IMG/VR virus record: IMGVR_UViG_2534682349_000001
Strand: one strand, 5' to 3'
Source of the DNA: a virus
Taxonomy: Duplodnaviria > Heunggongvirae > Uroviricota > Caudoviricetes
DNA length: 64,000 nt
The position numbers and the translations under genes were made by a program. Positions 30,125-54,251 of this stretch are shown here, one piece after another. Each line of letters starts with the position of its first letter. Position 1 is the first letter of the stretch. The notes under the pieces were generated by a model that saw only the letters and a program-made list of their open reading frames with translations, was not told the origin of the DNA and searched no databases.

Positions 30125-30160
30125 TTGCTTATAATTTAATGTAAAATATTTTTGTTGTGT
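30125..30160 (-). promoter_or_regulatory. conserved promoter-like motif (AACACAACAAAAATAT) reading into the tRNA array
   Basis: One of five copies of the TCACAACRAAAATAY motif placed at the heads of − strand transcription units. Confidence 0.4.
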
Positions 30161-30403
30161 TCAAATAAAAGTTACTTTACCTTTTTGATCGCTATTAGAG
30201 AGGTAATATACAACAATATCTTCCATAGTCCATTGTGCTTTAGGATCACCCTTTGTTAAAAGTTCATAACGATCTTTAGGATATTCAAACGTATCCTTCG
30301 AATGTTTCTTATAGTAATCAAGTACAAAATTACGAAAACCGTCTTCGCCATTTTCTTTGTTAAACATTTCTTTTTCAAACAATTTAATCAATGCTTTGTC
30401 CAT
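30161..30403 (-). CDS. hypothetical protein
   Basis: 80-aa ORF. Confidence 0.4.
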   Translation of the reverse strand: MDKALIKLFEKEMFNKENGEDGFRNFVLDYYKKHSKDTFEYPKDRYELLTKGDPKAQWTMEDIVVYYLSNSDQKGKVTFI

Positions 30404-30659
30404 AATAACTAGCTACCTCCTTAATATTATCTGGTTTAAATCCCGACCAGGCGTCTCCTATACCTTCATCGTCCAGCCATTCTACTACAGGAAAACTATG
30501 CCACCCCTGTTTACGTAAAACTTCTAATATGGGACTATCTTGAAGAACTATTACTTCTTTATAATCTACGCCTAACTCATTAAATAACTTCTTGGTCATC
30601 ATGCAAGCTGGACAATTTTCTTTTGTATAAATTTTTACCTTAATCATTAGTTCACCCAC
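30384..30659 (-). CDS. glutaredoxin-like / NrdH-type redoxin
   Basis: MIKVKIYTKENCPACMMTKKLF – CxxC active site in a thioredoxin-fold context. About 91 aa. Confidence 0.6.
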   Translation of the reverse strand: MGELMIKVKIYTKENCPACMMTKKLFNELGVDYKEVIVLQDSPILEVLRKQGWHSFPVVEWLDDEGIGDAWSGFKPDNIKEVASYYGQSID

Positions 30660-30725
30660 TTAATATATCTTGTCATTTTCTTTCCTTAAAATAAAAGGAC
30701 TGGTTGTACACCAATCCAATTCTTC

Positions 30726-31484
30726 TTATTTCGCTGTTTTATGATGAAACCACGACACATTCTTATCGAAGAAAGCAAGCATATCATTTGTAAGATAGAG
30801 AATGTAGGTTACAAATAATACAAAGTTTGCATCTCCTTGTGCTGCTGTGACTCCCCATAAAATCACTGACATTAACCCTTGGATAGTCCAACAATAGTAA
30901 CTTTCACTAAATCGCAATGTGGTTAATACTGCACCAGTAATACCAATAGAGGCAGCGATACTATCAATCCACGGACGTGGGCTAATAAAGATATGTGTAT
31001 CCGAGTAGTACAGAATACCAGTCAACACAACAAAAAATACAATTACCAATACCCAATTAGTTAATCCACGGCCACGCTCATGTAAGAACCGTACCTTCTT
31101 ATCAACGTCTTTAGCCCAACTAGGCATTAATAACACAGGCAAATCAAGTAGCAAAATATAAATAGCCTGTAATAATACATCATTGTAATTCTTTGCTTGA
31201 ACTGCTACAACAATATAAATCAGCGCTGATACAAGACCCAAAACTCCATTTAGAGGCTTAGTATTGGTGATTGACAGGGTACATGTAAATCCCAGTACAC
31301 CTGCAAACATAGTTGCCATAGTAACAGAATTAAATACTCCACCACCAATAGTCATTCCTACAATTAAACCAATTCCAGTAAGTAATAAACCATATGATCG
31401 GGTTGTCCACCCCTTCATTTGTTCTACATACCAGCTTGGTTTAACTACGTTATACCATGCAATCTTTTCAATAGAGTTATCCAT
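30726..31484 (-). CDS. PnuC-like nicotinamide riboside transporter
   Basis: 252-aa polytopic membrane protein. Pattern LG.VSALIYI..A.Q..NY.D.LLQ..Y typical of PnuC. Sits in an NAD-salvage context with the NAMPT and Prs homologs in the same element. Confidence 0.55.
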   Translation of the reverse strand: MDNSIEKIAWYNVVKPSWYVEQMKGWTTRSYGLLLTGIGLIVGMTIGGGVFNSVTMATMFAGVLGFTCTLSITNTKPLNGVLGLVSALIYIVVAVQAKNYNDVLLQAIYILLLDLPVLLMPSWAKDVDKKVRFLHERGRGLTNWVLVIVFFVVLTGILYYSDTHIFISPRPWIDSIAASIGITGAVLTTLRFSESYYCWTIQGLMSVILWGVTAAQGDANFVLFVTYILYLTNDMLAFFDKNVSWFHHKTAK

Positions 31485-31643
31485 CTTTCTACATTCCCTC
31501 TTTCTTCTTAGTAGCTTTCACTCGTTCATTTTCGAGCTGCTTATCCGAGCTATTGCTCTTCTTATCAGATAAAAATAAAATACCAAAAATTAATATTCCG
31601 ATGACGATAATCATCGTTAATGATTTAATAACGAAATATCCCA

Positions 31644-32282
31644 TTACTTGTTACCTGCTTGATCGACAATCACACCATTCGCACCTTGAACAGTAACAAA
31701 ACCATGCTTAAGATGTGCTTGAGCTTCCATGTATTGAATATTTTTATCAGTGATTGAATCAGAAATCTTCTTATTTGCCTTTGCTTCCCCTTCTGCACGT
31801 GCAATCTTTGCATTTGCATCAGCTTCGGCCTCAGTCTTCTTAGTCTTTGCTTCTAACTTAGCTCGTTCATTATCTTGACTAGCCTTGATTAGATCATCAA
31901 TTGATTTTTGAGTTTGAGCATCAACATCAGGAACACCGAAACTTAAATCTTCAACAATGAATCCCTGATCTTCAACTGACTTTTGGAAGTCCTTTAAAAT
32001 AGCGCCTTGGACTTTAGCAGAACCAGAACCCATTACATCAAGCAAACTATACTTGGACAATTCATCACGACTAGCTTTTTGAAGTTTTTGATTAAGCCAT
32101 CCGTTTTCGACAGACTTAATGTCCGCAGAGCCAAACTTCTTATAAACTTTGGCTGCTTTAGTTGGGTCAACATGATAAGCGTAAGTAATATTAACAGTGG
32201 TTTTCTTGCCATCTTTTGTAGCTGAACCAACTTTTTGCTTAACGGTTTGACTACGAACAGGATATTGAGTTACCTTGTCCAA
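31644..32282 (-). CDS. SPFH/band-7 (prohibitin/HflC-like) domain protein, C-terminal frame. It is joined to 32270..32452 by a frameshift.
   Basis: Ala/Glu-rich AEGEAKANK coiled region typical of SPFH C-termini. An upstream frame continues GVHFVGLDKVTQYPVR. Confidence 0.55.
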   Translation of the reverse strand: MDKVTQYPVRSQTVKQKVGSATKDGKKTTVNITYAYHVDPTKAAKVYKKFGSADIKSVENGWLNQKLQKASRDELSKYSLLDVMGSGSAKVQGAILKDFQKSVEDQGFIVEDLSFGVPDVDAQTQKSIDDLIKASQDNERAKLEAKTKKTEAEADANAKIARAEGEAKANKKISDSITDKNIQYMEAQAHLKHGFVTVQGANGVIVDQAGNK

Positions 32283-32452
32283 TCCGACAAAATGAACCCC
32301 TGGCTCAACGCAGAATCGCGGACCCCACCTGACATTGAATAGCGCACACCAACGTTACCATTATCAATTTTTTCAAAGAAGCGGAAGCCACCAATAGTGA
32401 CACCCAATAATACAACAACTGCTCCAATAGACCATTTAACTGATTTTTCCAT
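32270..32452 (-). CDS. N-terminal transmembrane segment of the same SPFH protein (separate frame)
   Basis: MEKSVKWSIGAVVVLLGVTIGG... then GNVGVRYSMSGGVRDSALSQG. The frame breaks at a CCCC/GGGG tract near 32299–32302. Confidence 0.45.
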   Translation of the reverse strand: MEKSVKWSIGAVVVLLGVTIGGFRFFEKIDNGNVGVRYSMSGGVRDSALSQGFILSDWTR

Positions 32453-52580: not shown

Positions 52581-52952
52581 CTACCAATTAGGAAAAACAT
52601 ATTTTTCTTTAACAATAGTTGTTTGACTAACGGGCATTGCTCCGGCAATACCAACTAATTTATGCTTTTCTACACTTTCACCATCTTCTTGTGGATAGGC
52701 AAACACTTGAATATCCTCGGTTTCCTCGTCGTCCATATCCTCAATGTATTCCAGCAATTCATTTTCGTCGTAAAACCCTTCAAGTTCATTACCGAACCAA
52801 TCGCAAATACTGAAATACCAGGACTTACGAATTAACTCACCATCAAAGTAGTCGTCTGGCTTAATCCATTTGAAGGTAACAGGATAATTTTCTCGGCGAT
52901 AGTGTAATTTCTTCATGATAAATTCCTCCTTGATAATTTCTTTTCTAGTCAA
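52581..52952 (-). CDS. hypothetical acidic protein
   Basis: 123-aa ORF. Confidence 0.4.
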   Translation of the reverse strand: MTRKEIIKEEFIMKKLHYRRENYPVTFKWIKPDDYFDGELIRKSWYFSICDWFGNELEGFYDENELLEYIEDMDDEETEDIQVFAYPQEDGESVEKHKLVGIAGAMPVSQTTIVKEKYVFPNW

Positions 52953-53255
52953 CTATGGTTCTACAAACTTATCTAATCGTTCACGGTCAATGTTGATAAT
53001 ATACATACCCATATCAACACTGTACTCAATACTGTTAAGCATTCGCCAAAATACCAAGCCCGCTCGTGCGGAATTCATTTTTTCTGCATAATTACTAATT
53101 TTCTCAATAAACAGTTCTAATAACTCCTTTGGTGTAGCTCCTGCTAGAATAATTTCTTCATCCAGGTAAATAACATCGTCATCAAGTTGTGCTGTTGTTG
53201 TGATACAATCCTTCTTAATTTTCTCAAGTGCGTTATCAGTCCAAGCCATTTCCAT
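52953..53255 (-). CDS. hypothetical protein
   Basis: 100-aa ORF. Confidence 0.4.
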   Translation of the reverse strand: MEMAWTDNALEKIKKDCITTTAQLDDDVIYLDEEIILAGATPKELLELFIEKISNYAEKMNSARAGLVFWRMLNSIEYSVDMGMYIINIDRERLDKFVEP

Positions 53256-53309
53256 TTCCTCCAGTTAGTTAATTTATTTTCTGTTCAGTAATTAATAGTG
53301 ATAATTTCT

Positions 53310-53639
53310 TTATTTCTTAACGTTGACCAATTCAATACCATCAGCGCCTTCACCCTGTTGCCCCACAATTTTTTGTGACTTATCAGTAGGAACAACAACA
53401 AGGGTGTAATCACCATCGCCTTGATCGTGGTACTCAACCTCGAAATTCTGAGTTTTAATAGTGTCGTCATTCTTGAGCGATAAATTCTTTTGCTTGTGAC
53501 CAATAGTCTTACTAATAATTTTTGCTTCACTATGCATCGTGATTGCGTCTGAGCGTGATTCACATGATGAAATAATCCAGCCGGTAACGCTTACGATAGT
53601 TGTTAGGGTTAATACGATTAGTGCAATATTTTTCTTCAT
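53310..53639 (-). CDS. putative lipoprotein
   Basis: Signal peptide with lipobox IISSC. Confidence 0.45.
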   Translation of the reverse strand: MKKNIALIVLTLTTIVSVTGWIISSCESRSDAITMHSEAKIISKTIGHKQKNLSLKNDDTIKTQNFEVEYHDQGDGDYTLVVVPTDKSQKIVGQQGEGADGIELVNVKK

Positions 53640-53674
53640 GGTTATTTGTCCTCCGAGTGGTTGTATTGTGTGGT

Positions 53675-54208
53675 TTATAGATTTTCTTCTTTAAATTGAT
53701 TAATGATTTCACTTGCATGATTGTTAAGCATTTCTTGGCATTGATGTTCGCTCATGCTTTCAAAGTTACCCACTTCATTAATGAAAAAGTAATCATCGTC
53801 CCAGCTTTGAATTTTGCCAAAGTATGTGGCACGCGCTGCCTCTACTGGATCAATTCCTAACTCTGTGATTAATTCATCAAGGCTTTCGGTCATGTAATCA
53901 GGTAAGTATAAGTTTTGCTTACTTTGGCTATCTAGTGAATTGAATACCTCCTCAATAGTGTCATAATTTTCCAGTGCTTTAGCCAATTCATTTAACCGAT
54001 ATAAGCTATCGTATTCACTAATTGCGAATGGTGCTTCATAGTCGCTGATAAACCATTCATCGTGGTAACCTTGCTTGCTATCACCGCCCAGGTCTAACTT
54101 GTCCAAAATATCCTTGTTTACGTCATCAACTGGCAAAGTTGTCCATTGTCCAGTAAGTTCACCATCGTTGTACTTCGCTAAGTTTGAAACAAATACGTTA
54201 ATTTTCAT
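53675..54208 (-). CDS. hypothetical acidic protein (177 aa)
   Basis: ORF preceded by a conserved promoter-like motif. Confidence 0.45.
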   Translation of the reverse strand: MKINVFVSNLAKYNDGELTGQWTTLPVDDVNKDILDKLDLGGDSKQGYHDEWFISDYEAPFAISEYDSLYRLNELAKALENYDTIEEVFNSLDSQSKQNLYLPDYMTESLDELITELGIDPVEAARATYFGKIQSWDDDYFFINEVGNFESMSEHQCQEMLNNHASEIINQFKEENL

Positions 54209-54214
54209 GATATT

Positions 54215-54251
54215 TACCCCTTAATTAATATATTTTAGTATTTTCGTTGTG
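54215..54251 (-). promoter_or_regulatory. conserved promoter-like motif (TCACAACGAAAATACTAAAATATATT)
   Basis: Copy 5. Confidence 0.4.

Follow-up and report, generated by a model that had tools for sequence, protein, structure and literature searches.

A box repeated at operon heads of an SPβ-like Limosilactobacillus reuteri phage-plasmid is probably the operator of an integrase-fold master repressor

Five transcription units in the 64-kb stretch of virus DNA analyzed here (IMG/VR record IMGVR_UViG_2534682349_000001; the window) are each headed by a copy of one short sequence element, which we call the box. The units are the transfer-messenger RNA (tmRNA)/transfer RNA (tRNA) array; an operon encoding a 175-amino-acid (aa) protein, a 101-aa protein, and a RecD-like helicase; a Sak4-like/exonuclease/YorH-like/DnaB-like operon; a deoxynucleoside monophosphate (dNMP)-kinase/199-aa/382-aa operon; and the ArdA block. 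Two further genes, p422 and p356, encode the candidate box binders. Here, we describe the boxes, their distribution, and their covariation with p422, and we weigh the reading that they are operators of a repressor against other explanations. The coordinates of all features are collected in Table 1.

The 14-nucleotide (nt) core of the box, CACAACRAAAATAY, has exactly five exact matches in the window, every one on the minus strand, and none in 100 dinucleotide-preserving shuffles of the same sequence. Allowing up to two mismatches raised the count to 11, compared with an expectation of 4.7, and the additional matches all look unrelated. A 20-nt weight matrix (5-nt flank, 14-mer, and one base) built from all distinct copies separated the five boxes (scores of 26.5 to 31.8) from the next-ranked site in the window (12.3), so that the score distribution is bimodal and the set sharply bounded. 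The 5′ flank reads TTRRW in all five copies. Information content is high from positions −5 to +14 and then low but nonzero for approximately 13 nt, and the sequence contains two A-tracts (GAAAATAC GAAAATAT). The box is thus an asymmetric element of roughly 20 to 30 bp, comprising the TTRRW flank, the CACAACRAAAATAY core, and a looser, A-tract-rich 3′ part. All five copies are intergenic and oriented with the next gene downstream. A first-pass annotation made from the letters of the window had listed five copies of a motif, each in the gap upstream of a minus-strand unit, and this is what the exact matches show. Four of its coordinate pairs agree with ours; the third (40966-40981) lies about 10 nt off, spanning the upstream flank and just the first 5 nt of the core. 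The core of the motif that it described also stands; a TATATT hexamer follows at a fixed distance at three compact sites only (see below).

The window belongs to an approximately 128-kb SPβ-like phage-plasmid of Limosilactobacillus reuteri. The p422 protein is 100% identical to an L. reuteri protein, the same genes are present on a 127.8-kb metagenomic contig, and two complete L. reuteri plasmids, NZ_CP102426.1 (128,846 bp) and NZ_CP065541.1, share about 90% identity across a 10-kb test stretch. A scan of genome contigs returned a single, more distant syntenic relative, p53608_1 of strain ATCC 53608 (LN906635.1; 138,515 bp), published as a plasmid with phage-derived regions (PMC4667477). Because SPβ-like siphovirus genes (the Pfam families YorH, YonD_N, and YonG_N; terminase, portal, tape-measure, holin, and endolysin genes; and a Sak4/DnaB/DnaE replication set) occur together with plasmid genes for a RepA_N initiator, ParA, and an actin-like segregation protein, the element is a phage-plasmid. 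A near-identity search against GenBank phages returned no match, and the RecD-like helicase is at most about 31% identical to proteins of Brevibacillus phage Sundance and Tsamsa-like phages.

Across the complete plasmid NZ_CP102426.1, the matrix found exactly seven boxes (scores of 24 to 32; next best, 17.7). Every one of the seven lies between genes in the orientation of the gene that follows, and both strands are used. Five are counterparts of the window boxes. The two others correspond to sites outside the window, one upstream of a DUF1064 gene in an oppositely oriented replication/nucleotide block and the other upstream of a block encoding a 240-aa protein, HU, a YonG-like protein, and terminase. 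No box was detected by the matrix scan in the roughly 45-kb structural block of this plasmid. The expectation that an element-specific motif heads transcription units, in the direction of transcription, therefore held at 5 of 5 sites in the window and 7 of 7 in the complete relative; a genome-wide search had been proposed as the test, with absence of enrichment upstream of operons counting against the motif, and enrichment at operon heads proved complete. Readings of the boxes as iterons, centromeres, Chi-like sites, or pac sites were rejected, since the copies occur singly, are spread across more than 100 kb, and are without exception intergenic and oriented with genes.

The strongest evidence for an operator function is the covariation of box type with p422. 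In close relatives, the genes neighboring p422 are 93 to 100% identical to those of the window and p422 itself is 86% identical; loci in which p422 is at least 86% identical carry CACAAY-type boxes only. In p53608_1 (represented by loci L005, L019, and L023-L025), synteny from the YopP-like gene to the RecD gene is intact and the neighbors are 64 to 85% identical, whereas p422 has only 30% identity. This plasmid has no window-type box. Its place is taken by GTAAATAARGAATRAA, which occurs six times (expectation in 21 kb, 0.29), at positions orthologous to the window-type boxes of the 240-aa, DUF1064, p175, Sak4, dNMP-kinase, and ardA sites. In a further relative, L007, the neighbors are 41 to 73% identical and p422 is 25% identical; here, a third box type, TTTGGCTCAnnnTTAAACCAAAATATAGC, occupies the dNMP-kinase and p175 positions and one more. 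Box type tracked p422 type in 13 of 13 loci, each of the three box types being paired with its own p422 type (at least 86%, 30%, and 25% identity), with synteny and box positions conserved.

The exchange is local. At the ardA site, the flanks of the two types are identical through TTAATCACAA and again from AAGGGGTAAATATCATG on, and the middle alone is exchanged; at the tRNA site, about 90 bp are replaced between identical flanks in the window and p53608_1. Conversely, among relatives the core is conserved where flanks and TATATT diverge, as at the Sak4 site of L001, where the upstream flank is unrelated and the core is kept. Replacement of the box as a block at six orthologous positions requires a coevolving reader. 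The suggestion of the first-pass annotation that a phage-encoded protein, rather than sigma-A alone, recognizes the motif is thereby upheld, given that the boxes switch as a block with one phage gene across heteroimmune relatives. The Sak4 box of p53608_1 lies directly against the ribosome-binding site. Upstream of the p175 gene of this plasmid, the box (L005 14740-14775, equivalent to LN906635.1 at ~110888, minus strand) includes AAGAATAAAAATAAAA, which agrees at 16/16 nt with the phi3T SroF box in reverse complement; the sequence is AT-rich and the match hence only suggestive.

The covarying gene belongs to a family of repressors. MrpR (YopR) is the master repressor of SPβ, a catalytically inactive protein with a tyrosine-recombinase fold (PMC10516654), and p422 is a distant homologue of MrpR and of SroF of phi3T. 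Direct similarity to YopR is weak (BLASTP E value of 0.005), and p422 residues 107 to 161 reach the Phage_int_SAM_5 threshold. Relatives of p422 match Pfam MrpR_N_CB at 1.6e-5 to 1e-4, and hhalign of the p422 family against YopR gave 77% probability (E value of 2e-5; 239 columns across the two domains, CB and CAT). A p422-family profile searched against 1.84 billion representative proteins found 67 relatives only. Six of these (P0040, P0044, P0048, P0053, P0066, and P0067; 310 to 340 aa; profile E values of 4e-8 to 1e-4) carry both Pfam domains, MrpR_N_CB and MrpR_C_cat, above threshold and match YopR at approximately 1e-21 to 1e-34; the set's strongest YopR match was P0059 (9e-50). The AlphaFold model of p422 is poor (predicted local distance difference test [pLDDT] score of 54; shallow alignment), and a Foldseek search with this low-confidence model, which is weakly informative, returned tyrosine recombinases only, including YopR (8bj6) and MrpR (8a0a). 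In two sequence alignments of the p422 family, the positions expected for the box I Arg and for H-x-x-R seem not to be conserved. Searched alone, p422 had no match among PDB sequences; it bears no likeness to YopQ, and that assignment was rejected. The adjacent gene product, p356, has a recognizable Phage_integrase domain and SAM-like domains and is similar to YopP (E value of 4e-11); it was accordingly classed as YopP-like and not YopR-like.

Given that the covarying gene is an MrpR/SroF homologue, the cognate factor is most likely a repressor, and we therefore consider it probable that the boxes are operators of a lysogeny (plasmid-prophage) master repressor of the MrpR/SroF type in this SPβ-like phage-plasmid, with p422 as the likeliest binder. 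The boxes sit at or just downstream of the starts of lytic/early operons, often directly before the ribosome-binding site. From this site set and its distribution, the positional orthology of the sites, the replacement of boxes along with p422 divergence, and the homology of p422, we infer binding, repression, and roadblocking as follows. p422 would bind each box as a DNA-encircling monomer and would block initiation or promoter escape at adjoining sigma-A promoters, or act as a roadblock within operons, as at the Sak4 and ardA sites. Some boxes would in addition overlap a weak sigma-A-like promoter (TAGTCA/TAATCA-17-TATATT). The operons for replication, recombination, nucleotide metabolism, tRNAs, anti-restriction, and packaging would thus stay silent while the element replicates as a plasmid.

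Several observations weigh against this assignment. The link from p422 to the boxes is drawn from covariation and homology, and p422 itself falls below every MrpR Pfam threshold, has the low-confidence model described above, and is extended at its N terminus by about 100 aa that MrpR/SroF lack. The box sequence is unlike the consensus of SPBRE, the box of SPβ, and the 5′ part TTAATCACAA is common to two heteroimmune box types, which a purely type-specific operator does not explain. No box lies upstream of the p356 and p422 genes, whereas SPβ has an SPBRE at yopM. Finally, a convincing separate promoter upstream is missing at sites 3 and 5 and at both sites beyond the window, and at many distinct sites a −10-like hexamer (A2, T6) follows the core by 5 nt; some boxes may therefore themselves be promoters.

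Table 1. Boxes, promoters, and candidate regulatory genes of the window
Feature	Coordinates	Strand	Remarks
Box 1, TTGAA-CACAACAAAAATAT-T	30145..30164	−	Starts directly after stop codon of 80-aa gene; core 30146-30159
Box 2, TTAAA-CACAACAAAAATAT-T	36135..36154	−	63 nt upstream of ATG 36072 (175-aa/101-aa/RecD-like operon); core 36136-36149
Box 3, TTAGT-CACAACGAAAATAC-G	40956..40975	−	Core (40957-40970) starts 21 nt past stop of 382-aa gene; core to Sak4 ATG (40928), 28 nt
Box 4, TTAAT-CACAACAAAAATAC-T	43341..43360	−	Between promoter 43402-43373 and dNMP-kinase ribosome-binding site; core 43342-43355
Box 5, TTAAT-CACAACGAAAATAC-T	54237..54256	−	In 63-nt gap between 67-aa gene and ardA; flank and core begin 15 nt after stop of 67-aa gene; core (54238-54251) to ardA ATG (54208), 29 nt
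Near-consensus sigma-A promoter of tRNA array, TTGACA-17-TATTAT, 11/12	30091..30119	−	26 nt downstream of core 1
Sigma-A-type promoter GTGTCA-18-TATTAT with TG extension	36163..36192	−	Sigma-70 scan; ends 13 nt before core 2
Sigma-A-type promoter ATGACT-18-TATGAT with TG extension	43373..43402	−	Sigma-70 scan; kept in relatives; follows p422 terminator; ends 17 nt before core 4, predicted start ~6 nt upstream of box 4 flank
Intrinsic terminator-like hairpin with T-run, end of p422	43446..43481	−	Sequence scan
p422, 422-aa gene, distant MrpR/SroF-family integrase-fold protein	43472..44740	−	Candidate cognate repressor; ends at terminator upstream of box 4
p356, 356-aa YopP-like tyrosine-recombinase-family gene	44914..45984	−	Immediately upstream of p422; alternative candidate binder
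p108, 108-aa gene (tentative part)	57745..58071	−	Promoter with LexA (Cheo) box 58122-58135

The first-pass annotation had read the motif as a promoter recognized by a phage-encoded middle/late activator or sigma-like protein. In this model, a weak −35 (TTAATC or TAATCA), a conserved spacer, and a TATATT −10 would form a middle/late promoter that fires only upon recognition of the conserved part by the phage protein. We consider this unlikely, although part of the site anatomy favors it. At the compact sites (boxes 3 to 5), the core is followed by 5 nt, TATATT, 4 to 5 nt, AAGGGG or GGGAGG, 7 to 8 nt, and the start codon, and at most compact sites and both sites outside the window a −10-like hexamer (A2, T6) stands 5 nt past the core. 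The boxes head operons and are co-oriented with transcription; two of them, site 3 (TAGTCA-17-TATATT) and site 2 (TTGTTA-18-TATATT), and these only, reach 9/12 in a sigma-70 scan; and the 240-aa and DUF1064 sites follow a T-run or lack another visible promoter. Tandem early and middle promoters are, moreover, common in phages. However, TATATT itself occurs at the fixed 5-nt distance at the three compact sites only (40951-40946, 43336-43331, and 54232-54227). At 30159 and 36149 (sites 1 and 2), 3 nt fewer separate the core from the nearest TAYATT. Spacing from core to hexamer differs by 3 to 5 nt among sites, and at the two sites outside the window the hexamer is CAAATT, TAAATT, or TGAATT. At the orthologous dNMP-kinase site of close relatives, TATATT is replaced by TCTATC (L003 and L009), TCTATT (L006), or TACATA (FN041, where it sits 2 nt before the ribosome-binding site) and the core is retained. 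A start 7 nt past TATATT would land within the Shine-Dalgarno sequence (AAGGGG/GGGAGG) at sites 3 to 5, and the Sak4 box of p53608_1, abutting the ribosome-binding site, leaves no room for a start.

Promoter-like sites are not enriched in the region (44, against 65.7 in shuffles). Separate sigma-A-like promoters flank 3 of the 5 boxes, upstream of boxes 2 and 4 and downstream of box 1, and the box accordingly lies upstream of the promoter, over the start, or in the leader; such variable placement is the behavior of an operator and not of a fixed promoter geometry. No sigma factor, MotA-like protein, YonO, or other activator was recognized among approximately 20 window proteins compared with PHROGs and Pfam or in the annotations of relatives, although the function of many genes is unassigned, and the gene that does covary comes from a repressor family. 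Neither the fixed −35/spacer/−10 unit nor an activator or sigma-like reader was thus borne out. The first-pass annotation was right about a phage-specific reader at operon heads and probably wrong about the kind of factor and the −35/−10 anatomy, although a weak promoter may overlap the box at some sites.

The remaining alternatives concern which molecule is read and by what. That the boxes are bound by p356, either by itself or jointly with p422, and not by p422 alone appears improbable to us. p356 has the domains of an integrase, is homologous to YopP of the SPβ sro operon, and also diverges between box types (64% and 44%), and a shared 5′ half with a type-specific 3′ half could reflect two binders. 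Yet p356 varies from 77 to 100% among elements of the same box type and between types diverges no more than its neighbors, whereas p422 clearly stands out; the protein that binds the boxes of SPβ and phi3T is SroF/MrpR and not SroD/YopP (PMC10516654; bioRxiv 10.1101/2025.11.27.690993). Still more doubtful is an action of the box as RNA, an unstructured site in the 5′ leader to which an antiterminator, a regulator of translation, or a processing enzyme would bind. This would suit the invariable sense orientation, the location of the box at sites 2 and 4, where a candidate promoter precedes it and the ribosome-binding site follows (site 5 would join them only by counting an upstream candidate that is weak, at 8/12, and below the scan threshold), and the constant 28 to 29 nt to the start codon at sites 3 to 5. 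It does not suit box 1, which lies upstream of the tRNA promoter and hence outside the tRNA transcript, nor the DNA-clamping recombinase fold of the covarying protein, nor the homologous elements of SPβ and phi3T, which are proven DNA operators. Folding energies were no better than those of shuffles (z of +0.2 to +1.3); with no predicted structure and no Rfam family at the boxes, a structured RNA was rejected. We give the least credence to ordinary sigma-A promoters, or promoter/ribosome-binding-site cassettes, that resemble each other through recent duplication and have no dedicated factor. The sequence is AT-rich, and the similarity among sites 3 to 5 does extend into the ribosome-binding site, but the core is conserved while both flanks diverge (the Sak4 flank of L001 being unrelated), sigma-70 geometry is poor at most sites, and duplication is contradicted by block replacement at six orthologous positions in a heteroimmune relative.

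Operators of an integrase-fold repressor have precedents. In SPβ, about 10 dispersed, co-oriented SPBRE boxes at operon heads are bound by MrpR (YopR), as shown by chromatin affinity purification sequencing (ChAP-seq) and electrophoretic mobility shift assays (PMC10516654). The SPβ boxes that we extracted from NC_001884, (t)AGACAAAtACAAAwAATATGTATA, are all co-oriented with the downstream gene; those of yopM, yopV, and yonX are among the ones abutting the ribosome-binding site, and a sigma-A promoter precedes the box at yopV and yonX, whereas the box precedes the promoter at aimR. The L. reuteri element shares this mixed box/promoter architecture, with dispersed, asymmetric boxes (about 7 to 10) heading early/lytic operons, among them the Sak4/helicase replication operon. 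It also shares geometry (TAGACA-17-TATAAT in SPBRE; TAGTCA/TAATCA-17-TATATT here) and, like SPβ, encodes an MrpR-homologous integrase-fold protein beside a YopP-like gene. There are also differences. In sequence, the boxes are unrelated (the core of SPBRE reads AATATGTATA, and the SPBRE positions of NC_001884 hold no CACAACRAAAATAY-like site); because box sequences are known to differ among SroF types, this mismatch lowers sequence membership rather than the case for the mechanism. The putative repressor is 422 aa long, with the extra N terminus of about 100 aa, and only remotely similar. At BLAST-level sensitivity, tblastn of the window, FN041, and p53608_1 detected no homologue of AimR, YopQ, YopT (Sar), or YonO (a YonO-type RNA polymerase), and no sigma factor. 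The host belongs to the Lactobacillales and the element is maintained as a plasmid (RepA_N, ParA, and actin-like protein), and the repressor operon lacks a box of its own.

The SroF protein of phi3T binds as a monomer encircling a 26-bp asymmetric box with two A-tracts; the SroF proteins of phi3T and SPβ are 30% identical and phage specific (heteroimmune), with different boxes (bioRxiv 10.1101/2025.11.27.690993). The phi3T box, CAGTAATTTTATTTTTATTCTTAATG (26 bp), part of the SroF-Sar switch, differs in sequence from the window box, but both are long and asymmetric with two consecutive A-tracts, and type specificity at 30% identity is the same pattern as that seen between the window and p53608_1. 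Unlike the SroF-Sar pair, the candidate SOS-controlled partner p108 (see below) is all-helical and not of the α/β Sar/YopT fold. The T4 MotA-box and SPO1 gp28- and gp34-dependent promoters, the analogues of the promoter model, have a phage element that replaces or accompanies a weak −35 before non-early operons; they combine a fixed distance to a conserved −10 with a dedicated activator or sigma factor, whereas the −10 of the L. reuteri sites is neither conserved nor well placed. With lambda-type CI/Cro operators, the boxes would share the property of determining immunity and of being exchanged with the repressor gene between heteroimmune relatives, but lambda operators are short palindromes at two promoters, bound by dimers, and the L. 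reuteri boxes are long, asymmetric, single, and spread over more than 100 kb. On architecture, putative-repressor homology, and covariation, the motif is best filed in the SPBRE/SroF-box class.

A candidate SOS-controlled antirepressor is p108. Its promoter (TTGATA-17-TATTAT) has a LexA/Cheo box, GAACATTCGTTC, in the spacer, conserved in p53608_1, and a second, weaker box downstream. p108 covaries with p422, being 90% identical in a plasmid of the same box type and 32% identical in p53608_1. Its AlphaFold2 model is confident (pLDDT, 92) and forms an all-helical bundle, for which a comparison with PDB gave no match. Assignments of p108 as a homologue of Sar/YopT or YosL were rejected, as there is no sequence similarity, the fold differs, and PDB holds no match; it could be a functional analogue of the SOS-controlled antirepressor Sar with a new fold. 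We tentatively propose, as a more far-reaching and somewhat doubtful extension, that the element represents an integrase-fold repressor regulon outside the Bacillus arbitrium phages, in Lactobacillales plasmid prophages devoid of AimR, YonO, and Sar, in which boxes are bipartite, the TTAATCACAA half is shared and the 3′ half swapped with the repressor, and p108 acts as a LexA-controlled antirepressor trigger. The shared TTAATCACAA half may be read by a second conserved factor or may be a promoter element.

If p422 is the repressor, the MrpR/SroF system would extend from Bacillus SPβ-family phages to large phage-plasmids of L. reuteri, a gut symbiont and probiotic species. The seven boxes would then map a regulon spanning replication, recombination, nucleotide-metabolism, tRNA, anti-restriction, and packaging operons, and at least three immunity types would be readable directly from sequence. 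Box typing could predict superinfection immunity among strains, boxes and repressor could provide tight orthogonal switches in lactobacilli, and the arrangement bears on the silencing and induction of a plasmid prophage.

Additional features were noted near the boxes and regulatory genes. The dNMP-kinase gene probably starts at a noncanonical ATC (43312-43310, minus strand), 7 nt after GGGAGG (43325-43320); this codon is in frame with the first ATG (43294) and 18 nt upstream of it, an arrangement kept in relatives. The gap between p356 and p422 (44741-44913, minus strand) contains two ACAATTGT palindromes around AT-rich −10-like hexamers and none of the CACAAC boxes; the palindromes may form an operator controlling p422. 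Upstream of the ardA box, at 55020-55485 (minus strand), lie five (about four to five) tandem strong sigma-A promoters spaced 84 to 125 nt apart, four of which score 11 to 12 of 12, each with the palindrome ATAGCGTGAACGCTAT across spacer and −10. Downstream of them, 54485-55020 is a stretch of about 500 nt that is free of open reading frames (ORFs), more GC-rich, and structured-looking, with no Rfam match. The region may hold a bank of early promoters together with the operator of a second, helix-turn-helix-type regulator, or it may be a decoy or noncoding RNA locus. Two further LexA-box-like sequences, CGAACATATGTACG and CAAACGAACGTTCG, lie at 13130-13143 and 13162-13175 (plus strand), directly upstream of a gene at 13201-13635 (plus strand).

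Elsewhere on the element, 15111-15286 (plus strand) matches the rli28 family of Listeria small RNAs in Rfam (73.5 bits), and the array at 25605-29996 (minus strand) combines a tmRNA (26002-26379) with eight tRNA hits by Rfam, an unusual cargo for a plasmid-borne prophage. An ORF-free region at 56600-57300 is dense in short direct repeats (GATATGAT-, GTGAGTGAGT-, and TGTATAGATGTATATA-type) and may be a replication origin or packaging region. The partition region (60156-63200) encodes ParA (61880-62659), an 88-aa partner, and an actin-like protein of the ParM/Alp7A type (60156-61361), with clusters of GTTACAAGT and GAAGTCA repeats at 61362-61613 and 62660-63200 as candidate centromeres. In FN041 and p53608_1, identity is only 29% for ParA but about 80% for the actin-like gene, so that the ParA module appears to have been swapped. 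One close relative (L011, 11505-12659) carries an IS605-family OrfB/TnpB (Cas12f-like TNB) insertion between the 84-aa and RecD-like helicase genes.

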